In this document: positions 6,032-64,000 of the stretch, piece by piece
Layout of the letters: each line of letters starts with the position of its first letter
Position numbering within the stretch: the stretch's first letter is position 1
Assembly (NCBI GenBank): GCA_038043045.1
Contig: JBBTCX010000101.1
Location: 373 to 64,372, forward strand
Length of the DNA stretch: 64,000 nt
Reading direction: 5' to 3'
Origin: Planctomycetota bacterium
GTDB taxonomy: Bacteria > Planctomycetota > Phycisphaerae > UBA1845
The notes under the pieces: model-generated
Databases searched by the model: none
What the model was told of the DNA's origin: nothing
The model's input: only the letters and a program-made list of their open reading frames with translations
Made by a program: the position numbers and the translations under genes

Positions 6032-7112
6032 GTCCGCGTGCGCGACGACCGGGATTCGCCATGCTCCATTCGAAGCGGTCACCGTGCGGTCGTTCACGCG
6101 CGACGATGTCGCACGCTGGGATGAGTACGTCTTGCGACATGAGCAGGGCAGTCTGTTCCATGCCGCGGCGTGGCATCATGGCGTGTGCTCGGCGTTTCCG
6201 CACAAACCCCATTACTTCCTGGCCGAGCGCGGTCGTCGTGTCGTCGGCGTGCTTCCGCTGTTTTTGGTGAACAGTTTTTTGGCGGGTCGGATGCTGGTCA
6301 GCGTGCCGTATGGCGTCGGTGGTGGAATTCTGGCGGACGATTCGGTCGTCGCTGGCGAGCTTTACCGCGCTGCCCGTGAGTTGGCCAAGCGAAGAAACTG
6401 TGCCACCCTTGAACTTCGACAAAGGGGATCCGAAATAGCCGATTCCACTTCGTCCACACCCTACGCGTATTTTACGCGAGAATTGCCGGCCCGTGGAGTA
6501 GACGTTCTATCTTGGCTTCCGCGAAAGGCCCGGGCAGCCACTCGACAGGCACGGGATCGATACGAATTACGCATCATTCATGGAGACGAGCACTTGGCTA
6601 CTGTGTGGGACCTCTATTCAAGAAATGTGCGGCGGCTGGCGTCGATCAATTATCCACGGTCGTTCTTCCGCGGACTCCGCGACGCTACTCCCGGCAAGCA
6701 CTGGGTGTCCCTGGTGATGCAAAAAGATCGCCCGGTGGCCGGTGCGATGACTTTCTTGTTCAAGGACCGCGTGATGCCGTACTTTTTCGGAGCGACGGGA
6801 GATGCCAGAGTATGTCATGCGGCGAACTTTTTGTATTGGCAGTTGATGGAGCGTGGCGCCTCCGAAGGATTTCGCGTTTTCGATTTCGGGCGGTCTCGAC
6901 GGGACAACGTCGGTAGTTATGACTTCAAGCGGTTTCACGGATTCGAGCCGAAGCCGTTAAGCTATGTCGTGGACGTGTTGAACGGTGGTCCGCCACCCGA
7001 CCTTTCGCCCGGCGATCGACGATTTCAATGGGCTCGAGCAATTTGGCCTTATTTGCCGCTGGCGCTGACTCGTGGCCTGGGCGGCCGATTGAGTCGGCAT
7101 CTTACCGGATGA
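6015..7112 (+). CDS. FemAB-like / GNAT-fold protein of the type associated with PEP-CTERM exopolysaccharide loci (TIGR03019-like)
   Basis: 365 aa. It overlaps the upstream gene by 17 nt. The pattern LFHAAAW...YFLAERGRRVVGVLPLFLVNSFLAGRMLVSVPYGVGGG and the C-terminal FDFGRS...GSYDFKRFHGFEP match my recollection of this family. Confidence 0.6.
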   Translation: MLAVLESACATTGIRHAPFEAVTVRSFTRDDVARWDEYVLRHEQGSLFHAAAWHHGVCSAFPHKPHYFLAERGRRVVGVLPLFLVNSFLAGRMLVSVPYGVGGGILADDSVVAGELYRAARELAKRRNCATLELRQRGSEIADSTSSTPYAYFTRELPARGVDVLSWLPRKARAATRQARDRYELRIIHGDEHLATVWDLYSRNVRRLASINYPRSFFRGLRDATPGKHWVSLVMQKDRPVAGAMTFLFKDRVMPYFFGATGDARVCHAANFLYWQLMERGASEGFRVFDFGRSRRDNVGSYDFKRFHGFEPKPLSYVVDVLNGGPPPDLSPGDRRFQWARAIWPYLPLALTRGLGGRLSRHLTG

Positions 7113-7116
7113 GTCG

Positions 7117-8445
7117 ATGAGAATTCTCTACTTAGCCCATCGCATTCCGTATCCGCCGAACAAGGGGGACAAGCTGCGCGCGTTTCGACACATCGAGCAT
7201 TTGGCCAAGGACCATGAGGTTTGGTGCGCCTGTTTCATCGATGATCCTGATGACGCGAAATATGTCAAACCTCTGTCCGAACATTGTCGAGAACTAGCCG
7301 CGATTCCTTTGAATCGGCGTCGCGCCACCCTGCGAGGGCTGCTGGGACTGGCCACGGGTTCGACAATCACCGAGTCGTTCTATTCGGATCGACAAATGAA
7401 ACAGACCCTCGAGCGATGGTGCCAGAGTGTGGCGTTTGACGTGGTGTTAGCTTTCTCATCGAGCATGGCCCCTTACGGATTTCGAGTTTCGGCCGCACGT
7501 CGCGTTCTTGATCTTTGTGACGTCGACAGTCGAAAATGGATGGAGTATGGGCGAACTTCGTCGCGACCGGTCCGGTGGCTGTATTCGTTGGAGGGTCGAC
7601 GTCTTGCCATGCGCGAGCACGCTTGGTGTGAATCTTATGATGCCACGTTGGTGGTCACGAAGCAGGAAGCTCTGCTCTTGGATGAAACTTTTTCGAATTC
7701 CACGCCCACCCCAACCGGACGAATACACGTGGTTGGAAACGGAGTCTCGCTACCGGAAATCAAGAGGGATGCGGAATTCAAGCGATCGGGAGTTCCGACC
7801 GTGGGTTTCGTCGGTGCGATGAACTATCGACCGAACGTGGATGCGGTGTGTTGGTTTGTCGAGTATTGCTGGCCGGAGATCCTTGAGGTGATTCCCAACG
7901 CCGCATTCAAAATCGTTGGTCACGCCCCGACAAGAAAAGTCCGAGCGCTGGGCCGACGCTTGGCCGTTCAAGTGGTCGGGCCGGTGAAGGACATCGTTTC
8001 CGAGATTCAAAGTTTTGATGTGAGCGTTGCGCCATTACGGATGGTCTTCGGAATTCCGAATAAAGTTTTGGAGTCTCTGTCCGCCGGATGTCCGGTGGTG
8101 ACCACCTCCGCAGCTGCAAGTCGGATCGGTCTTCAGCACGCGGTACATTGTTACATTGCCGATGCGCCGAAGTCGTTTTCCGAAAAAGTTGTGCAGTTGC
8201 TCCAAGATGGTCAACAAAGAAGCCAAATCGGGTTGGCAGGGAGGGCGCTTGTTTCGCGGACCTACCAATGGGTGGATCAGCTTAGATGTTTAGAGTGGGC
8301 ACTGGAAGGAAACCAAACAAGCACACCGCTGAAAGAAAGTGGGTTGGTCGATTCGAGTGAAGGCGAAACTGGGGTTGTCCCCCTTGAATCGGGAAACAAC
8401 ATCGGAACGCCGTCCTCGAGAAGCGCTGTCGCAAATGTTTCGTAG
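7117..8445 (+). CDS. GT4-type glycosyltransferase, PEP-CTERM/EpsH1-system-associated sugar transferase-like (TIGR03087-like)
   Basis: 442 aa. The N-terminus MRILYLAHRIPYPPNKGDKLRAFRHIEHLAKDHEV is characteristic of this subfamily. The C-terminal half is GT-B-like (VGFVGAMNYRPNVDAV...GIPNKVLESLSAGCPVV). Confidence 0.7.
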   Translation: MRILYLAHRIPYPPNKGDKLRAFRHIEHLAKDHEVWCACFIDDPDDAKYVKPLSEHCRELAAIPLNRRRATLRGLLGLATGSTITESFYSDRQMKQTLERWCQSVAFDVVLAFSSSMAPYGFRVSAARRVLDLCDVDSRKWMEYGRTSSRPVRWLYSLEGRRLAMREHAWCESYDATLVVTKQEALLLDETFSNSTPTPTGRIHVVGNGVSLPEIKRDAEFKRSGVPTVGFVGAMNYRPNVDAVCWFVEYCWPEILEVIPNAAFKIVGHAPTRKVRALGRRLAVQVVGPVKDIVSEIQSFDVSVAPLRMVFGIPNKVLESLSAGCPVVTTSAAASRIGLQHAVHCYIADAPKSFSEKVVQLLQDGQQRSQIGLAGRALVSRTYQWVDQLRCLEWALEGNQTSTPLKESGLVDSSEGETGVVPLESGNNIGTPSSRSAVANVS

Positions 8446-9020: not shown

Positions 9021-9182
9021 TTAAAAAGCTCCGTTGAGGGTTGGAGTAGCCACTTCCATCATTTTGTTTTTGTAGGCAACCGTCGGTTTTGGGTAGGATG
9101 ATTTGAAATAGGACTATGAGGACCCTATATACAAATGGATGATCCAAATGTGACCCAAACGAGGAATTGAATAGGGTACGTT

Positions 9183-56450: not shown

Positions 56451-56653
56451 CACTCTTCACCGGATGCGTCGGGCCTTGCATCGAATTGCACTTTCTCGAA
56501 TGAATTGCCGAAAAGCAAGCGCGCGAAAAACCCTGGAAAAACAGGCGTTTCTAGCACTCCATCGCATCGTGTTGCATCGCAAAAGAATCGGAGGAGGAGG
56601 GATTCGAACCCCCGGTACGGTTACCCGCACAACGGTTTTCAAAACCGTCCCCT
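56451..56653. repeat. left direct repeat of integrative element (attR-side), containing the 3' 65 nt of tRNA-Ser as a displaced gene fragment (56589..56653, minus strand)
   Basis: 56554..56653 is identical to 63768..63867 (100/100, hand alignment, offset 7214). 56461..56553 aligns to 63675..63767 with 13 mismatches and no indels. Confidence 0.85.
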
Positions 56654-56717: not shown

Positions 56718-56858
56718 ATGCCGTCGGAAGTAGAAATTGACCCCCAAAACGACCCCGATTTGGAGCTTGTGAAATCCAGATGGGCGGCGCTGCCGGAAGC
56801 CGTTCGGGCGCGGATCGTCGGGTTGGTCGAGGGAGCGACGGCGGGAAGCGGGCAATGA
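56718..56858 (+). CDS. 46-aa ORF at element left end, which may instead be the displaced 3' end of the integrase reading frame
   Basis: The ATG at 56718 is in frame with track ORF 56442..56858. The peptide MPSEVEIDPQNDPDLELVKSRWAALPEAVRARIVGLVEGATAGSGQ looks helical. The stop is immediately followed by a terminator hairpin. Confidence 0.3.
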   Translation: MPSEVEIDPQNDPDLELVKSRWAALPEAVRARIVGLVEGATAGSGQ

Positions 56859-56890: not shown

Positions 56891-57237
56891 CCCATAAATT
56901 CGAACCCAAAACCGGCAAAAACGCGACGGTTCTCGTTAGGTTAACCCCCACCCGACGAAGGGGGTGTCACGATCGCGCGGATCGCAAGGCGAATTCGCAG
57001 CGGTTATCTGTGAGGATGATTTCCCGTTATGATCGCGCGCGCGGAGTAACAAGTTTCACGCGCCTACGCGCGAGGGTCGGGACCACTTGTCATAGAGCCG
57101 TCCGCCGGAGACAATCCCGGCGTGCAGCTTGTTCGCTCTTGCAGTTGATTCAAAAGAGCTTTTCCCGCCCGTTCGGCGTGCCATTCCATTGCGAACGGCT
57201 GTACAGCGCGGAACGCGGCGGGTTTGCGCGTGACGGT

Positions 57238-58509
57238 ATGACTACAACATCGTGGAACCAACATTCCTTTCGGCTACTCATTTCCATTGCGACATGCTCA
57301 CCCGTGCTTGGTGAACAAGCGAGACTCGAACCGATTGGAGTCTTGCCCGGTGGATACACTGCCAGTTTCGCCTTCGACATTTCGGCAAACGGTGAAGTCG
57401 TCGTTGGTTACTGTGACGCTACGGGCAATGTTGGTCAAGCATTTCGATGGACACTGAAGGATGGAATTGAAGCGTTGCCTTGGTTGACACCTGGAGTCGA
57501 TCAACGATCAGATGCCTACGCCGTTTCGGCGGATGGATCGGTCATCGTTGGTCGCGTTTCACAAACTGGTGGAACGAATTCCACCGCCGTCCGGTGGGAG
57601 AATGGTATCCCGATGTCTCTTGGTGCGCTCTGTACCGACAATCCGTACGGTTCTGGTAGTTACGCATGGGATGTTTCTTCCGACGGTCAGATCGTCGTTG
57701 GTTACAGCAATAGTTGCGGTTTCCGTTGGACGGCAAAGACCGGAATTCAACCCATTCCAACACCAGCGGGATTTCCGGGCACAAGTTGCGATGCACGTGC
57801 AATATCCGGTGACGGGACCACGATAGTTGGGTCTTGCGGCGCTTGTGGCGCATATCGATGGACTGAGGGTGCTGATCCACAATCGCAACATTTTCCAGGC
57901 GCGGTGTATACGGTCGTAACAGCCGTTTCCTATGATGGCCAAGTGCTCTTCGGAAATTACAACCTTCCGTTCGGAACGCGGTCATTTCGTTGGACGCCTT
58001 CCGAGGGGTTTCAAGACTTGGGTCAATTGCCCGATCAATCCGGGTCGACGAATGTGGAGGATTGTTCGTCCGATGGGTCGATGGTTGTTGGCACTTATTA
58101 CGCACTGGACGGCGACAATGCGTTTGTATGGAGTGAATCCACCGGACTTCAAAGTCTGCGAGATATTCTCACTGATGGTGGAGCGGAACTTTGTGATTGG
58201 AGGCTTTGGAATGCTTCGTCTGTTTCCGCGAATGGCACTCGAATCGTTGGATACGCTGATGACCCCGGCCCAATGCTGTACGACGGATATGTAGCCTTCT
58301 TGTCCGATGCACCGATGGAATGTTGCAACGGGTGTGACGATGGAAACTCCTGCACGGCGGATACATGCGTGAGCGGTTTTTGTGAACACACACCCGTGGT
58401 TCACGGGGACCTTGCTCCATGCGGCGGAGACGGCAAAGTCGACATCGATGATTTGATTTCGTTGCTCGAAGCATTCAAAGGTAATTCGCTTTGCGCCTGT
58501 ACGCCGTGA
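57238..58509 (+). CDS. HAF-family-like extracellular repeat protein with Cys-rich and dockerin/EF-hand-like C-terminus (element cargo)
   Basis: ORF 57010..58509, with an ATG at 57238. It contains ~40-aa repeats of the form A.A(V/I)S.DG..(V/I)VG.......AFRW....G...L. The C-terminus is CCNGCDDGNSCTADTCVSGFCEHT...GDGKVDIDDLISLLEAFKGNSLCACTP. Confidence 0.65.
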   Translation: MTTTSWNQHSFRLLISIATCSPVLGEQARLEPIGVLPGGYTASFAFDISANGEVVVGYCDATGNVGQAFRWTLKDGIEALPWLTPGVDQRSDAYAVSADGSVIVGRVSQTGGTNSTAVRWENGIPMSLGALCTDNPYGSGSYAWDVSSDGQIVVGYSNSCGFRWTAKTGIQPIPTPAGFPGTSCDARAISGDGTTIVGSCGACGAYRWTEGADPQSQHFPGAVYTVVTAVSYDGQVLFGNYNLPFGTRSFRWTPSEGFQDLGQLPDQSGSTNVEDCSSDGSMVVGTYYALDGDNAFVWSESTGLQSLRDILTDGGAELCDWRLWNASSVSANGTRIVGYADDPGPMLYDGYVAFLSDAPMECCNGCDDGNSCTADTCVSGFCEHTPVVHGDLAPCGGDGKVDIDDLISLLEAFKGNSLCACTP

Positions 58510-58514
58510 AAACG

Positions 58515-59408
58515 ATGCGCCTTTCGAATCAAAGATTCCCAACGATTTCGTTGTCAGAAATCCTCGACGTTGGGATGAAACAAGAGGTAAACCGAATTGA
58601 ACGAGTACACAGGCGATTTGCTCGCGTGGCGTTACGCAGGAACGACCTTACGCCAGATCAACGAAGTGTACTCGAAGTCGTAATGACGGGTGGAATCCCA
58701 GTAGATGGCCGGCTTTTCGAGAATAAGCACTACGAAAGAGTCCCTGAGCGGTTTTATTTGTTGAATCGTGCTGGAAAGACCGTCCGGCGATATGAGTCTC
58801 GCCGACTCGGTGTACCGTTGCATAAACCGCGCGCCTACGACGTAATCTTGAGAGAATTCTTCGGGGCGGCAAGAAAAATCGAACAACGCCCGTTTGGTGC
58901 TGCGCCGTCTTTCACGGTTGAAACTTTTTGGCCACAATCGATAGCGATGTATCTGGAGTTCCTGAGTACAGGTGTAAAGAATCAAGAAAAATACAATGCT
59001 TATGACATTGCGGACGTGGTAAAAAGATTGCAATGCGACGGCTTCGCGGCTGAACTCTTGAGGACACTTTGGCAAGAATGCCCGGAAGAAGCGAAGGAAA
59101 TGGGGTTGCCGAAGCCGCGTGGCGTGACTGCGGAAGAAAAACCGGCGTGGGCACGATTGGTCATTCATTCATCAAAGGGGGCTGACGACACCGCAGAACT
59201 TGATGGAAAGACATTCCGTCTCACCGGCGCAAACGATGCGCGGTTTCTCGAAACGCTTCAAGAACAAAAAGGCATGACGCTATCCGCAACTTCGCTTGGC
59301 GACGCAATAGATGAACGTCCCGATCGCGTCTACAAGAGGCTTAAGAAATCACTCCAGCGCATTATTGAGAAACCCGGAAAGGGTCGCAAGGGATATCGGA
59401 TGCTCTGA
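58515..59408 (+). CDS. hypothetical protein (~297 aa), no recognisable domain (element-borne)
   Basis: ORF 58491..59408, with an uncertain start (ATG at 58515 or 58575). The stretch looks AT-richer. The C-terminus is basic (KRLKKSLQRIIEKPGKGRKGYRML). Confidence 0.5.
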   Translation: MRLSNQRFPTISLSEILDVGMKQEVNRIERVHRRFARVALRRNDLTPDQRSVLEVVMTGGIPVDGRLFENKHYERVPERFYLLNRAGKTVRRYESRRLGVPLHKPRAYDVILREFFGAARKIEQRPFGAAPSFTVETFWPQSIAMYLEFLSTGVKNQEKYNAYDIADVVKRLQCDGFAAELLRTLWQECPEEAKEMGLPKPRGVTAEEKPAWARLVIHSSKGADDTAELDGKTFRLTGANDARFLETLQEQKGMTLSATSLGDAIDERPDRVYKRLKKSLQRIIEKPGKGRKGYRML

Positions 59409-59471: not shown

Positions 59472-59651
59472 ATGAAGAAGATAAAAACTCCGAGTTTGCC
59501 GGAACCCAAGGAAATTCGCCAAGAGATTGACTCGCTCAGGTCGCGCATAGGCGAGCTGAAAGCACTCCTGCGCGTTGCTGAAGTTCAGCAGATTTCGAAA
59601 CAACTTCGCTGCAAGTCTGAAGAGAGAATCCTTGCGGAGGGACGAACATGA
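59472..59651 (+). CDS. 59-aa coiled-coil ORF, translationally coupled to the Xis-like gene (not in the ORF track, below its size cut-off)
   Basis: Hand translation gives MKKIKTPSLPEPKEIRQEIDSLRSRIGELKALLRVAEVQQISKQLRCKSEERILAEGRT. Its TGA overlaps the next ATG (ATGA at 59648..59651). Confidence 0.4.
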   Translation: MKKIKTPSLPEPKEIRQEIDSLRSRIGELKALLRVAEVQQISKQLRCKSEERILAEGRT

Positions 59652-59962
59652 CCGCGATGCCAAAACTTGCGGGGAGTGAACCCGATCGGCGGGAAAACGT
59701 GGACGCGGGGAAGCGGTCGGGGATGGAACCGGCGAGCCGGGTGGAACCGCTGGCCGTGGATGCGAAGGCGTTGGCGGGGTTGATCGGCATATCCGTCCGC
59801 ACGATTCGAACGCACGACGCCGGTGGCAAGTTGCCGCGTGGCGTCCGAATCGGCGGAAGAAAAGTGTGGATCGTGGATGAAATCAAACGTTGGCTTGAGT
59901 CCGGCGCGCCGAATCGGGCGACGTGGGAAGCGATGAAGGGGAGCGCGAGTAAATTCAAATAG
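59648..59962 (+). CDS. excisionase/AlpA-type helix-turn-helix DNA-binding protein (HTH_17-like)
   Basis: LAVDAKALAGLIGISVRTIRTHDAGGKLPRGVRIGGRKVWIVDEIKRWLESG. Confidence 0.7.
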   Translation: MTAMPKLAGSEPDRRENVDAGKRSGMEPASRVEPLAVDAKALAGLIGISVRTIRTHDAGGKLPRGVRIGGRKVWIVDEIKRWLESGAPNRATWEAMKGSASKFK

Positions 59963-60020: not shown

Positions 60021-61556
60021 ATGAATCAGTATAGTCAAAAGCCGTCATCGTCACAAGTCGACGACCGACTCCCACCACATGATCCTGACGCGGAAAGGGC
60101 CGTCACCGTTTGTCTTGCCGACGTGGCACCTGAGCGGTTGACTTGGCTGTGGCCGAATAGAATACCGCTGGGCAAACTCACATTGATCGCCGGTGATCCG
60201 GGCCTTGGAAAAAGCTTCGTCACGTTGGATATGGCGGCGCGTCTTTCACGGGGCGAGCCGTGGCCGGACAGCCCGAATGAACCCGGAACCTGTGGATCAA
60301 CGATCATTCTGAGCGCCGAAGATGATCCGGCGGATACGATCGTTCCGCGTCTTATGGCGCATGGGGCCGACCTTTCACGAATTCACGCTCTTTCCACCGT
60401 AAAACAAAAGGATGGGAAGCTTTCGCCATTCAACTTGTCGCGCGATGTGCCTGTTTTGGAAAAGGCGATTCAGCAAGTCGGCGAATGCAAGTTGATCGTC
60501 ATCGACCCGGTGAGCGCCTATCTCGGTGGAGTCGATTCGCACAAAAACGCGGAGACACGCGGACTACTTGGACCATTGGCGGAATTGGCGGGGCGCCACC
60601 GCGTGGCCGTTGTCATGGTTACGCACGTGACCAAAGCCTACGGCGGAAAAGCGCTCTATCGTGCCACCGGTTCGTTGGCATTCATGGCGGCGGCGCGGGC
60701 CGGTTGGACGGTCATGGCGGACAATGGTGACCCGAAAAGGCGACTCATGCTGCCGGTCAAGGTGAATTTGGCTGAGTGGCCGACGGGTCTGGCATACAGA
60801 CTCGTTCCGCAATTCTTGGACGAAATCGGTGCGAACGTGGCGACTGTTGTTTGGGAGCCGGACCCGGTTGTTGTTCAAGCCGACGAAATGTTGCGGCGGG
60901 AAACGAACGCCAACGAAGGGCAGAAGCGCTCAACGCACACCGCGCGTGATGAATGTGCGGACTGGCTGGCCGCAAAGCTTGCTATTGGACCGGTTCCGGC
61001 GACGGTGATGGAAACCGAAGCGGATCAACGGGGATACTCTACTTCCACACTACAGCGGGCAAAGCGAAGGCTTGGTGTCGAAAGCAAAAAGATCGGCATG
61101 AAAGGAAAAGGCAGTTGGCATTGGCGTTTACCAAGCCACGAATCCGAAGGTGTTCACCATGCGGATGAAGATACTCACCCAAAAGATGTGAGTACCTTCG
61201 GGGCGGGTGAATACCTTCGCGTTATTGACCCCGAAAACGCGGGTTCCGAACCCCTGATAAGTGACCATCCCACCGAAGATACTCACCCACCGGGGGTGAA
61301 CACCTTCGGCGATGACCGTGGCAATTCTGAACCGCGCGATCGCTTGGGCAAAACCAAAACCGTTAATGGAAACGGACAACTTCCCCTTCCACTTCATCCG
61401 CGTGGGGAGGAATTCACCGGCTTGGTTCCGGTCGACATGACGCCGGAAGGGTATCTACTCGTACTCAAAGGCCGCGCAAAGCGAACCGACGATCCGCAAA
61501 CCGTTCGAAAGCTGCGCGACAGTGCCGCGAAGATTCGAAAGCTGATTCAGAAATAG
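60021..61556 (+). CDS. AAA_25 / RepA-like RecA-fold ATPase (replication-initiation type protein of integrative elements)
   Basis: LWPNRIPLGKLTLIAGDPGLGKSFVTLDMAARLSRGEPWP is the Walker A. LIVIDPVSAYLGG is the Walker B. The C-terminal third carries a repeated EDTHP..V.TFG peptide. Confidence 0.7.
   Translation: MNQYSQKPSSSQVDDRLPPHDPDAERAVTVCLADVAPERLTWLWPNRIPLGKLTLIAGDPGLGKSFVTLDMAARLSRGEPWPDSPNEPGTCGSTIILSAEDDPADTIVPRLMAHGADLSRIHALSTVKQKDGKLSPFNLSRDVPVLEKAIQQVGECKLIVIDPVSAYLGGVDSHKNAETRGLLGPLAELAGRHRVAVVMVTHVTKAYGGKALYRATGSLAFMAAARAGWTVMADNGDPKRRLMLPVKVNLAEWPTGLAYRLVPQFLDEIGANVATVVWEPDPVVVQADEMLRRETNANEGQKRSTHTARDECADWLAAKLAIGPVPATVMETEADQRGYSTSTLQRAKRRLGVESKKIGMKGKGSWHWRLPSHESEGVHHADEDTHPKDVSTFGAGEYLRVIDPENAGSEPLISDHPTEDTHPPGVNTFGDDRGNSEPRDRLGKTKTVNGNGQLPLPLHPRGEEFTGLVPVDMTPEGYLLVLKGRAKRTDDPQTVRKLRDSAAKIRKLIQK
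61144..61309. repeat. iteron-like cluster: four copies of GGTGA(A/G)(C/T)ACCTTCG(G)
   Basis: There are three direct copies: 61188..61201 (gtgagtaccttcgg), 61206..61219 (ggtgaataccttcg) and 61295..61309 (ggtgaacaccttcgg). One inverted copy lies at 61144..61158; ccgaaggtgttcacc is the exact reverse complement of the 61295 copy. In addition, a 35-bp direct repeat unit gaagatactcaccca...accttcgg occurs at 61167 and 61275. Confidence 0.6.
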
Positions 61557-61600
61557 TAAAAAATGCGCCCTTGACGGTGCGCCTAACATGAGGTATATTT

Positions 61601-61909
61601 ATGGATGGAATGGACACCAAGGCGAGAAGGGCATGGAATGCTATACGGGAATGCGTCGCACGCAAACGATACATCGTGCTGCCGCACTTCATCGAACGCA
61701 TGGACCAGCGCGGATATTTTTGGCCGGACGTGCTGGCGATCATCGATGAACCGACCGACGTGCGATCCGATGGGCTGGACCGACTCGACCGTCCGAAGTG
61801 GATCGTTTCCGGTAAGGCCGCCGCGCCGCTGGACGAAACGGTGGAAATCGTTTGTGTGCTCGACAAAGATGACCGTGGCCGCGTGACCGTGTTCATCACG
61901 ATTTATTGA
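61601..61909 (+). CDS. DUF4258-family toxin-like protein
   Basis: 102 aa. YIVLPHFIERMDQRGYFWPDVLAIID...RVTVFITIY fits the H..eRm..Rgi ... viTvY pattern I recall for DUF4258. Confidence 0.6.
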   Translation: MDGMDTKARRAWNAIRECVARKRYIVLPHFIERMDQRGYFWPDVLAIIDEPTDVRSDGLDRLDRPKWIVSGKAAAPLDETVEIVCVLDKDDRGRVTVFITIY

Positions 61910-61918
61910 GGAGTCATC

Positions 61919-62344
61919 ATGGCGACGAAGACCCGCAAGACCTGGCGACGTGGACGACCGAGAGCGGCGCAGCTCGATAACCCCGATCTTCCCTACACGA
62001 TGAAACTGCCCGATGGTCGCGTGCTGTATACCGAAGTTCCGGGCCGATGGGTGACGGCGGACCGCGATGGACAGGCGGCGTTGCTGCCCGATGGGGTGGC
62101 GTTTCTCGATAAGCTGCGAGCGTTGGCGATCAAGCTGGACCGTCCACCGACACCCGGCTACATCACGGCGCTTCGTGAAGGATTGGGACTGACCCAAGCC
62201 GAATTCGGTGAGCGGGTCGACGTGGATAAGATGACCATATCCCGATGGGAGCGTGGCACGCTTCGACCGAGTGAAGAATCCTTGGCGGCGGTGGAAAGCG
62301 TGCGACGTGAAGCCGTCCGAAGTGGCGTAACCATTCAGGCATAA
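61919..62344 (+). CDS. XRE-family HTH protein (putative cognate antitoxin)
   Basis: ITALREGLGLTQAEFGERVDVDKMTISRWERGTLRPSEESL. It starts 10 nt after the DUF4258 gene. Confidence 0.65.
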   Translation: MATKTRKTWRRGRPRAAQLDNPDLPYTMKLPDGRVLYTEVPGRWVTADRDGQAALLPDGVAFLDKLRALAIKLDRPPTPGYITALREGLGLTQAEFGERVDVDKMTISRWERGTLRPSEESLAAVESVRREAVRSGVTIQA

Positions 62345-62365: not shown

Positions 62366-64000
62366 ATGGCGCGGATATATCGAAAGAGTTGGACAAAGCG
62401 GCTACCCGATGGATCGAAGGAAAAGACTCGTTCGCGGGCGTGGTACGTCGATTACCGGGACGTGGCGAGCGATACCGTGAAGACCGTGAAAGGCTACACC
62501 GACCGCAAAGCCACTGAACAACGCGCGGCGGAGTTGGAGCGAACATCCGAGCGGACAGCGGTGGGGCTGATTGATCGATTCGCCGAACATCGCAAGCGAC
62601 CGCTGACCGAACACGTTCACGACTTTCACCGTGCGCTACTCGCCAAGGAATGCACGGAAAAACAAGCCGACTTGTTGATGTCGCGGTGTCTGAGGGTGTT
62701 GGACGAATGCCGGTTTCGGTTTTGGCCGGAGATTTCGGCGTCAAGTGTTCAAGCGTCAATCGCGGAATTGAAAATCCGGCGTAAGGGAAAGACTTCCAAT
62801 GATCCGACGTTGCCGGTGAGCGTCCAAACGAAAAACTTCTACTTGGCGGCATTGAAACAATTCTGTCGGTGGATAGTCCGTGACGGTCGAGCGCCGGAGA
62901 ATCCCCTTGCCCACTTGCAAGGTGGAAACGTTCGCACCGATCGTCGCCATGATCGCCGTGCTTTGGAACCAGACGAATTGCGTCGGCTGTTGTCGGTTAC
63001 TGAAACCGGAACTACTCGCTACAGCTTGACCGGGCCGGATCGGGTGGCGCTTTATCGGCTTGCGGTCGAAACCGGACTCCGAGCATCCGAGCTGCGCTCG
63101 TTGACTTGGAACGACCTGAACTTTGCGGGTGCCGAACCGACGGTCACCGTCCGGGCCGCATATGCCAAGAATCGCCGTGAGGACTCTCTACCCTTAAAAC
63201 TCTCGACGGCGCAATCCCTTCGCGTCTGGCGCGATAAACAGGTCGGCGTGGACCGAATGGACCCGGTGTTCCCCACGATGCCCGCAAAGGGGCATGTTGC
63301 CGAAATGGTGAGGGCTGACTTGGATGATTCGGGAATCGTCTATCGTGATGACGCGGGCCGCGTGGTCGACTTCCACGCTCTTCGACACACCTTTATCAAC
63401 AACCTTGTCCGTGGCGGCGTTCAGCCGAAGGTGGCGCAAACGCTTGCCCGACATTCGACCATCACCCTGACGATGGACCGATACTCGCATACCAACCGTG
63501 GACAGCTCACCGACGCGCTATCGGCACTACCGGATTTGTCACTCGAACCCTGTGAAAAAGAAGTCGCGCTAGCCACCGGGACTGACAATCGCATCATCGA
63601 ATCCCGCGCTCAAAAAAGTATGCCGGAAAACCTGCCGTCCGCGCTGCCGTTTCACATGCCGGAACAGGGTTCACCGAATGCGTCGAGTATTGCATCGACT
63701 TGCACTTTGTCGAATGAATTACCGAAAAGCAAACGTGCGGAAAATCCTGGAAAAATAGGCGTTTCTCGCACTCCATCGCATCGTGTTGCATCGCAAAAGA
63801 ATCGGAGGAGGAGGGATTCGAACCCCCGGTACGGTTACCCGCACAACGGTTTTCAAAACCGTCCCCTTCAGCCGCTCGGGCACTCCTCCGTGAGTCAAAC
63901 CTGTCCGGTCGTAATGATCCACGAACCCCCGACCCGCGCGCGTCTGTTACCGCGACGGGGTCGGCGTGTTGCCATGTCGTGTCACCAAGGTCGCTCTTTT
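62366..64000 (+). CDS. tyrosine recombinase/integrase; reading frame open to the window edge (no stop in window)
   Basis: This is hand-translated and absent from the ORF track because it has no stop. It starts MARIYRKSWTKRLPDGSKEKTRSRAWYVDYRD. Box I is LAVETGLRASELRSLTWNDL. Box II is FHALRHTFINNLVRGG...LARHSTITLTMDRYSH, with the catalytic Tyr near 63485. The frame then continues through the repeat, antisense through the tRNA, and to position 64000. Confidence 0.8.
   Translation, partial: MARIYRKSWTKRLPDGSKEKTRSRAWYVDYRDVASDTVKTVKGYTDRKATEQRAAELERTSERTAVGLIDRFAEHRKRPLTEHVHDFHRALLAKECTEKQADLLMSRCLRVLDECRFRFWPEISASSVQASIAELKIRRKGKTSNDPTLPVSVQTKNFYLAALKQFCRWIVRDGRAPENPLAHLQGGNVRTDRRHDRRALEPDELRRLLSVTETGTTRYSLTGPDRVALYRLAVETGLRASELRSLTWNDLNFAGAEPTVTVRAAYAKNRREDSLPLKLSTAQSLRVWRDKQVGVDRMDPVFPTMPAKGHVAEMVRADLDDSGIVYRDDAGRVVDFHALRHTFINNLVRGGVQPKVAQTLARHSTITLTMDRYSHTNRGQLTDALSALPDLSLEPCEKEVALATGTDNRIIESRAQKSMPENLPSALPFHMPEQGSPNASSIASTCTLSNELPKSKRAENPGKIGVSRTPSHRVASQKNRRRRDSNPRYGYPHNGFQNRPLQPLGHSSVSQTCPVVMIHEPPTRARLLPRRGRRVAMSCHQGRSF
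63665..63867. repeat. right direct repeat of integrative element (attL-side), overlapping the integrase 3' region and nt 23-87 of tRNA-Ser
   Basis: See the left repeat. Identity ends at 63867 (R1 continues g, R2 continues t). Confidence 0.85.
63803..63889 (-). tRNA. tRNA-Ser (anticodon UGA), class II with long variable arm
   Basis: The reverse complement is GGAGGAGTGCCCGAGCGGCTGAAGGGGACGGTTTTGAAAACCGTTGTGCGGGTAACCGTACCGGGGGTTCGAATCCCTCCTCCTCCG. The 7-bp acceptor stem is GGAGGAG/CTCCTCC. The anticodon stem is ACGGT/ACCGT with loop TTTGAAA (TGA). It has a GTTCGAATC T-loop. CCA is not encoded. Confidence 0.9.

Follow-up and report, generated by a model that had tools for sequence, protein, structure and literature searches.

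In phage λ the replication origin lies inside gene O. Similarly, in repABC replicons oriV lies inside the initiator gene repC, and this internal origin is devoid of iterons (PMC3155836). In the iteron plasmids pPS10, F, R6K and RK2, clustered repeats of 15–22 bp are bound by winged-helix (wH) Rep proteins and the specificities of initiator and iteron co-evolve (review PMC4980987). In Staphylococcus pathogenicity islands (SaPI), the C-terminal wH domain of Rep binds iterons located directly 3' of rep, at least two on each side and in opposed orientation (PMC9371898). A related layout is seen in P4, where crr, the region that follows directly 3' of the α gene, holds octamers of either orientation to which α binds (annotated P4 GenBank record). 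Here we analyzed 64,000 nt of a Planctomycetota bacterium (Phycisphaerae, UBA1845; assembly GCA_038043045.1, contig JBBTCX010000101.1, positions 373 to 64,372), hereafter the window, in which a cluster of iterons lies inside the 3' part of a gene encoding an AAA_25 helicase-like protein. The 7.2-kb element that carries the gene is integrated in tRNA-Ser and also encodes an integrase, an excisionase-like helix-turn-helix (HTH) protein and a likely toxin-antitoxin pair. Judging from sequence analysis, the iterons are probably the replication origin of this mobile element, bound by the helicase's own wH domain. Our search of the literature on AAA_25 proteins with iterons, or on origins within a helicase coding sequence, returned no description of this family.

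The cluster spans 166 bp (61144-61309; individual copies S1 to S6 in Table 1) and consists of six copies of the 14–15-nt motif GGTGARYAYCTTCG(G), detected on both strands with up to two mismatches. They are arranged as ← ← → →, a gap of 67 nt and ← →, with start-to-start distances of 21, 22, 19, 67 and 22 nt. The initial annotation of the window had listed four copies. A repeat search recovered all repeats where they had been placed, including the exact 15-nt inverted pair S1/S6 and the direct copies S3, S4 and S6, but the count is six, with S2 and S5 as two extra copies on the minus strand. The 35-bp direct repeat reported at the same time also exists, with its units 108 nt apart, but is really the S2-S3 dyad duplicated as S5-S6; at its full extent the long direct repeat covers 46 nt (61156-61201 and 61264-61309, 108 nt apart, 74% identical). 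With at most one mismatch, GGTGARYACCTTCG matched 5 times in the window, always inside 61145-61308, against 0.06 matches expected. At up to two mismatches GGTGARYAYCTTCG gave 5 further matches, scattered over the window (chance expectation 2.8). No second cluster of the iteron motif was found elsewhere in the window or elsewhere in the element, and a possible seventh copy, weak with its 3 mismatches, lies at about 61405-61418. One DNA word is read as three peptides: E[GD][VT]H[HP] from the copies on the minus strand, V[SN]TFG from S3 and S6, and GEYLR from S4. The duplicated EDTHP..V.TFG peptide that had been noted in the protein tail is real, but S4 is the same DNA motif in another frame and S1, S2 and S5 are the motif on the other strand.

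Scans of genome contigs and metagenome contigs with the single protein retrieved no close relatives, and for this reason we turned to distant homologues collected via an alignment of the family (A1). The comparative set comprised the DNA of 80 relatives from GTDB genomes and of 80 from IMG/VR. For each locus we recorded the most-repeated 14-mer, on either strand and with up to 2 mismatches, in the 150 nt counted from the WxWxLP wing of the wH domain. The position of the array is conserved across both sets (~150 homologous loci): it lies beside the wH-coding segment and begins 20–35 nt after the wing. At least three motif copies were present in 32 of 59 GTDB loci and in none of 322 equal-sized control segments of the same genes, and codon shuffling of these loci reached a maximum of 2 copies, with a single 3. 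The result was replicated in the IMG/VR loci (34/73 against 5/296 controls). The repeated word is specific to the locus, as exemplified by GTGAGCACCTTCGG, GTGGCAACCTTCGG (L010), TTGGCCCCCTATG, TGACAATCTATGG, TGGCGGCCTTTGG and TGGACACCTTCGA, and every example fits the generic pattern NNTG[GA][GC]C[AC][TC]CTT[CG]GG. Sites of one locus share an identity of 0.78 and sites of different loci one of 0.55; the observed value was reached in 0 of 2000 permutations. A strict ← ← → → order at constant distance from the wing was found in 14 loci, and in 13 of these S3 and S4 start 19 nt apart; the two sites therefore fall in different frames. Recent neutral duplication or inversion was ruled out as a source of the repeats because loci with diverged motifs still share the arrangement and the 19-nt spacing and retain the identity among their own copies. 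Likewise, a σ54 promoter, which the TGGC…TTGG-type iteron resembles by eye, was dismissed since the GG-to-TTG spacing is 3 nt short.

The initial annotation had proposed to check in homologues whether the peptide or the DNA motif is conserved. Tails of homologous proteins carry strings such as EDAH, VS[AT][FL]G and GE[HR]L[GR], which in isolation would suggest conservation of the peptide, but the EDAH, VSxFG and GEHLR peptides are three translations of one DNA motif. Where the gene stops soon after the wing, the arrays run on into untranslated DNA. The 262 sites in 55 loci were divided into 158 coding and 100 non-coding (38%), with 4 spanning the stop codon, and the coding sites are spread over all six strand/phase modes. 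Synonymous codons inside translated sites are fixed as well: CTT encodes 24/36 Leu residues (67%, versus 12% outside the sites of these genes; p = 9e-14), GAA 26/27 Glu residues (96%, versus 50%) and CAA 21/21 Gln residues (100%, versus 45%). This test is mildly circular, since a consensus had been used to orient the sites. The constraint therefore lies on the DNA, and a purely protein-level explanation does not hold, given the six modes of reading, the untranslated sites and the fixed codons. The array is a DNA element that acts in cis and is linked to the Rep-like gene; the peptides are only its translation shadow.

Iteron and recognition helix of the wH domain co-vary. Across 44 loci, motif distance correlated with wH distance (Mantel r = 0.31, 0/2000 permutations) also when the ATPase domain was accounted for (partial r = 0.28), while the correlation with the ATPase domain given wH was absent (r = -0.02). 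In the 20 loci with an identified Xis-like protein, motif and wH distances were again correlated (r = 0.30, p = 0.002); these 20 loci gave r = -0.05 (p = 0.69) for the HTH_17 protein and r = -0.14 for the ATPase. The recognition helix starts with [W/I]-A-T in 9/12 loci with TGAGC-type motifs and with x-R-T in 29/33 loci of the TGG type, where [W/I]-A is never seen (Fisher p = 2.5e-7, uncorrected for phylogeny). Arg in the helix tracks TGG and Ala or Ser tracks TGA, and a pairing of Arg with the G at motif position 5 is chemically sensible. In the window, the recognition helix TSTLQRA lacks this Arg and the motif has A at position 5. We then scanned 241 million metagenome records with the DNA dyad only. 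Out of 29 matches, 19 lie at the 3' end of a helicase-gene homologue (33–52% identical to the query helicase), and all 19 carry the predicted non-Arg residue (A, T or M), 14 of them in the form W-A/T/M. In two other metagenome loci (L188 and L190) the dyad pattern occurs inside an FGGY sugar-kinase gene, where it encodes the peptide PKMFTSAVSIF; this look-alike is protein-driven and the dyad alone is therefore not diagnostic. Taken from the sequence comparisons, it is very likely that the iterons are functional DNA sites bound by the wH domain.

By analogy, the array is best read as an origin of the type bound by the SaPI Rep or P4 α initiators, here translated as a disordered linker. As in SaPI and other phage-inducible chromosomal islands (PICI), an initiator-helicase with a C-terminal wH domain, in our case predicted from models, is combined with opposed iteron sets, which follow the ← ← → → order in the window and in the 14 strictly canonical relatives, and the integrative element carries an integrase and an excision regulator. 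SaPI Rep is a helicase of the SF3/AAA+ type, whereas the ATPase of the window is AAA_25 (RecA-fold) and lies outside that group. The SaPI iterons are 5–6 nt long, flank an AT-rich centre and form an intergenic origin, whereas those described here are 14–15 nt long and translated, with no evident AT-rich centre. P4 is likewise a small tRNA-integrating element with an integrase and a Xis/AlpA-like protein, and its α protein is a multifunctional primase-helicase whose binding repeats, like our iterons, occur in both orientations. In contrast to the iterons, the P4 repeats are 8 nt long and untranslated. P4 also needs two cis regions where the element of the window has a single cluster, although a relative with two arrays (L194, see below) recalls the P4 pair of ori and crr. 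Homology to P4 α was rejected: hhalign of A1 against P4 α aligned the P-loop only, with a probability of 0.6%. S1 and S6 contain exactly the octamer TGTTCACC annotated in P4 (L085) as 'ori type 1 repeat', which occurs there 11 times, always exactly, in ori and crr. With no homology to P4 α at the protein level, this match is probably coincidental.

A candidate origin inside the gene for its own initiator, with synonymous positions constrained by a cis site, is a trait shared with λ O and RepC. Unlike the helicase-like window protein, these two are not helicases; they need host DnaB loading, and Pfam and PHROG searches found no homology of the window protein to either. Plasmid Reps differ in another way: they are separate wH proteins, dimeric or monomeric, which recruit DnaA and DnaB, where the window protein joins wH and AAA_25 helicase in one chain. 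Moreover, plasmid iterons are mostly direct repeats beside DnaA boxes and a DNA unwinding element (DUE), neither of which is seen at the array of the window.

Arrays were also found away from helicase genes. On one contig (L180), a 2-kb stretch of intergenic DNA holds three ← ← → → modules of ~80 bp (7066-7119, 8270-8342 and 9061-9133 of that contig), with spacings of 19, 21 and 19 nt, conserved spacers and a tyrosine integrase nearby; L175, L187 and L192 represent the same region. These orphan arrays confirm that the module is a DNA element. It is conceivable, though unlikely, that the four-site array is a portable module used in trans by the wH-helicase family, the stand-alone copies being 'origin-only' mini-elements or extra initiation or copy-control sites in host DNA. 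If true, this would be a helicase-iteron system that propagates the cis sites it uses, and the wH-iteron specificity classes would behave as incompatibility groups spanning Planctomycetota, Patescibacteria, Acidobacteriota and Proteobacteria.

Several observations weigh against reading the array as an origin bound by the wH domain. No clear AT-rich unwinding element was found in or beside it (spacer GC of 0.43–0.63), the closest low-GC 30-mer lies at 61533, ~225 bp downstream, and the GC dip at the arrays across loci amounts to only ~6–7 points. DnaA boxes are absent within ~850 bp of the array. The window protein begins ~27 aa ahead of the ATPase domain and has no N-terminal Toprim/primase region, which is present in most relatives (650–750 aa; PF13155 annotated in some). 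No helicase homologue was detected on contig L180, and L194 has a second array (6734-6786) 3 kb away from the one in its helicase tail; the module is therefore not always in the rep gene and may have roles beyond initiation. To these points are added the mild circularity of the codon-usage test and the Mantel and Fisher statistics, which are not fully corrected for phylogeny. In the window as a whole, DnaA-box-like 9-mers (TTATCCACA, up to one mismatch) are ~2.4-fold over-represented, with 17 observed against 7.2 expected, a count reached in 0/100 shuffles; they are unclustered and none lies near the array.

The lack of DUE and DnaA boxes and the presence of orphan and second arrays would suit sites that are bound by the wH domain without being an origin, namely an operator, copy-control ('handcuffing'), partition-like or termination sites, with initiation taking place elsewhere or not autonomously at all. 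Regulation by plasmid iterons is indeed common (PMC4980987). Yet opposed pairs directly 3' of an initiator-helicase gene match the experimentally defined SaPI origins and P4 crr, the element has no other repeat cluster, and a location at the 3' end of the gene, away from its promoter, is odd for an autoregulatory operator. We therefore hold this explanation to be doubtful, if worth keeping in mind. It is very unlikely that the repeats act instead through RNA or single-stranded DNA, with S1:S4 and S2:S3 forming nested hairpins that serve mRNA stability, termination or single-strand initiation. The region does fold strongly as RNA (-85 kcal/mol, z = -7.2), and the orphan modules lie in intergenic DNA after genes in the manner of REP-like palindromes, but strong folding would be seen with any inverted repeat. 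The four core sites are all equally alike: direct-repeat partners (S3-S4 0.90, S1-S2 0.82) are as similar as nested (0.85, 0.79) or non-nested ones (0.86, 0.80), G·U accounts for only 12 of 65 non-Watson-Crick positions, no Rfam family matches at the array, and a hairpin leaves the co-variation with the recognition helix unexplained. The hairpin that the initial annotation had assigned to each repeat unit consequently finds no specific support, as nested partners are no more alike than direct-repeat partners.

Binding by another protein of the element, whether the Xis-like HTH_17 protein, the arm-binding domain of the integrase or the Xre antitoxin, for recombination directionality or regulation, would be in line with the adjoining position of these genes and with the orphan arrays of L180 lying ~0.5 kb from an integrase gene. 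We regard it as highly improbable: motif distance follows wH and is uncorrelated with HTH_17, the att core lies 2.4 kb from the array, and the HTH_3 neighbour is not conserved (in L081 the integrase gene follows the helicase gene directly). Finally, the tail might carry short linear motifs (EDxH…VSxFG…GExLR) under protein selection, the likeness at the DNA level being secondary. The family consensus VSxFGxGEHLR, a conserved RVxDPENxxSEP spacer in the closest tails and the frame kept open over the array could be cited in its favor, but this reading is scarcely credible and already contradicted by the six modes in which the same motif is read, the 38% of sites that are untranslated and the fixed synonymous codons. 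In addition, the peptides change wholly with the DNA motif (HRGPS, AIGGQ, VAPYG and VGPLR in L016) and disorder is predicted for the tail. Within the reach of sequence analysis, the proposal of an iteron cluster and candidate origin inside a rep-like gene, put forward by the initial annotation, is thus supported.

If the array is an origin, the 7.2-kb element would be excised from tRNA-Ser by the integrase together with the Xis-like HTH protein. The AAA_25 helicase would then use its wH domains to bind the iteron sets of opposed orientation, assemble or load on both sides, melt the DNA and start replication of the circle. Priming would be provided by host primase or another protein of the element, because the window helicase has no Toprim domain of the kind found in most relatives. 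The iterons may double as sites of copy-number control or autoregulation, which is usual for iterons. The array would be read through as a disordered linker, because the sub-family has a small helical domain after it, and the EDTHP, VxTFG and GEYLR peptides would be by-products.

The system would offer a candidate origin, along with a putative code relating recognition helix and iteron specificity, for an uncharacterised primase/helicase family of more than 3400 members. Their carriers are small integrative elements and proviruses of phyla for which genetic tools are lacking, mainly Planctomycetota (Phycisphaerae), with further relatives on contigs of metagenome-assembled genomes assigned to Patescibacteria, Acidobacteriota and Proteobacteria. 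As a cassette of ~1.6 kb, the helicase gene plus array is an immediate candidate for building replicative vectors for these phyla. By analogy, a RecA-fold AAA_25 helicase would join the SF3 proteins of SaPI and P4 in following the principle of an initiator-helicase that loads itself at neighbouring iterons. For annotation, C-terminal EDAH, VSxFG and GEHLR 'motifs' should be taken with caution, as they are translation shadows of DNA-binding sites and not protein features.

Table 1. Coordinates of the iterons, protein domains and element features in the window.
Feature	Position	Strand	Remarks
Left att repeat, 198 nt	56456..56653		direct repeat, 93% identical, 7214 nt apart
HTH_17 / AlpA-Xis-like protein	59648..59962	+	directly upstream of helicase gene; PF12728 E 2.8e-4, 21.5 bits (under the family's 27-bit curated cut-off)
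AAA_25 (RecA-fold) helicase-like initiator gene, 511 aa	60021..61556	+	Pfam PF13481, E 5e-37, residues 28-206
wH domain, aa 296-376	60906..61148	+	recognition helix ...YSTSTLQRAKRR..., wing ...GSWHWRLP
Predicted disordered linker, aa 375-471	61143..61433	+	holds all six iterons; AlphaFold2 full-length pLDDT <50
Iteron S1	61144..61158	-	CCGAAGGTGTTCACC on + strand; translated S-E-G-V-H-H; exact reverse complement of S6
Iteron S2	61165..61179	-	ATGAAGATACTCACC on + strand; translated D-E-D-T-H-P; 1 mismatch to GGTGARYAYCTTCG
Iteron S3	61187..61201	+	TGTGAGTACCTTCGG; translated V-S-T-F-G; dyad with S2 (starts 22 nt apart)
Iteron S4	61206..61220	+	GGTGAATACCTTCGC; GGT GAA TAC CTT CGC = G-E-Y-L-R; other frame than S3, start +19 nt
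Iteron S5	61273..61287	-	CCGAAGATACTCACC; translated T-E-D-T-H-P
Iteron S6	61295..61309	+	GGTGAACACCTTCGG; translated V-N-T-F-G; dyad with S5 (starts 22 nt apart)
C-terminal helical hairpin, aa 472-511	61434..61553	+	helices 475-488 and 492-510; pLDDT 77-92 (AlphaFold2 full-length model)
Sigma70-like promoter match	61571-61599	+	ahead of DUF4258 / Xre pair
DUF4258 / HTH_3 (Xre) gene pair	61601..62344	+	between helicase and integrase; DUF4258 E 1e-4, 23 bits (below the Pfam 25-bit curated cut-off); HTH_3 41 bits (passes)
Tyrosine integrase	62366..63867 and on	+	PF00589 84 bits; phrog_1 E 9e-41
Right att repeat, 198 nt	63670..63867		overlaps 3' 66 nt of tRNA-Ser(tga)
tRNA-Ser(tga)	63802-63890	-	at right element boundary

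The helicase protein matches PHROG families annotated as 'DNA primase/helicase'. No AAA+/SF3 family of Pfam was matched; besides AAA_25, a weak KaiC match was obtained. We found 3409 homologues at E <= 1e-5, the closest of which are 45–57% identical, with alignments that end near residue 370–400. The AlphaFold2 (AF2) model of the wH domain shows the succession H-H-H-E-E, that is, three helices and a β-hairpin, with a predicted local distance difference test (pLDDT) score of 83, and Foldseek searches with this model returned winged-helix DNA-binding proteins only (PadR, RTP, MarR and SmtB, TM ~0.6). Behind the array, the C-terminal helical hairpin presumably keeps the reading frame open. C-terminal extensions comparable to that of the window protein are present in six relatives (P0004, P0005, P0008, L001, L024 and L028). 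Among the C-termini of homologues (P0038, P0045, P0059, P0066 and others), many have a conserved ...DGWGE[LIV] terminus after the array, and others end, like the window protein, in a helical hairpin (…NP..AAE.RRQAA.IR). The frame presumably stays open across the array because one or the other of these C-terminal pieces follows it.

The element has the characteristics of a tRNA-integrating tyrosine-recombinase element, as its integrase gene adjoins the tRNA gene and a second copy of the 3' part of the latter marks the opposite end. With its 198 nt, the att direct repeat has an unusual length, since it extends 132 nt beyond the tRNA-Ser 3' end instead of being limited to the 3' part of the tRNA. 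Sub-threshold matches to Rfam RF04351 'Plastid-psbl-rps4' at 56589-56640 and 63803-63854 (plus strand) were discarded as an artefact, being the antisense of the tRNA-Ser 3' half. The Xis-like protein is also matched by phrog_66 'excisionase and transcriptional regulator' (E 1.5e-9), and its gene precedes the helicase gene in L081 and L083 as well. The integrase is intact and 37% identical over 443 aa to that of L081 (tblastn, E 6e-78), a locus with no HTH_3 neighbour between helicase and integrase genes. The integrase open reading frame (ORF; 62366-63999) has no stop up to the window end and crosses the att repeat in antisense orientation to tRNA-Ser. Both att copies keep this frame, and in the excised circle the ORF would pass from 63867 to 56654 and end at 56858; the C-terminus of the integrase would therefore differ between the integrated and the circular state. 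The intP product of phage Mx8 likewise has a C-terminus that differs between these states.

The DUF4258/Xre pair, whose sigma70-like promoter match is a good one, is likely a toxin-antitoxin system stabilising the element. Upstream of the Xis-like gene lies an unrecognisable ORF of 305 aa (58491-59408) whose position is conserved in L081 and L083, with no detectable similarity to its counterparts of 342–360 aa there. The first gene of the element (57010-58509) encodes a 499-aa protein with a Cys-rich C-terminus and internal repeats, the latter visible in the DNA as a repeat of 53 nt (57359 and 57653). It resembles the type of a neighbouring chromosomal protein of 790 aa and is probably the product of a cargo gene.

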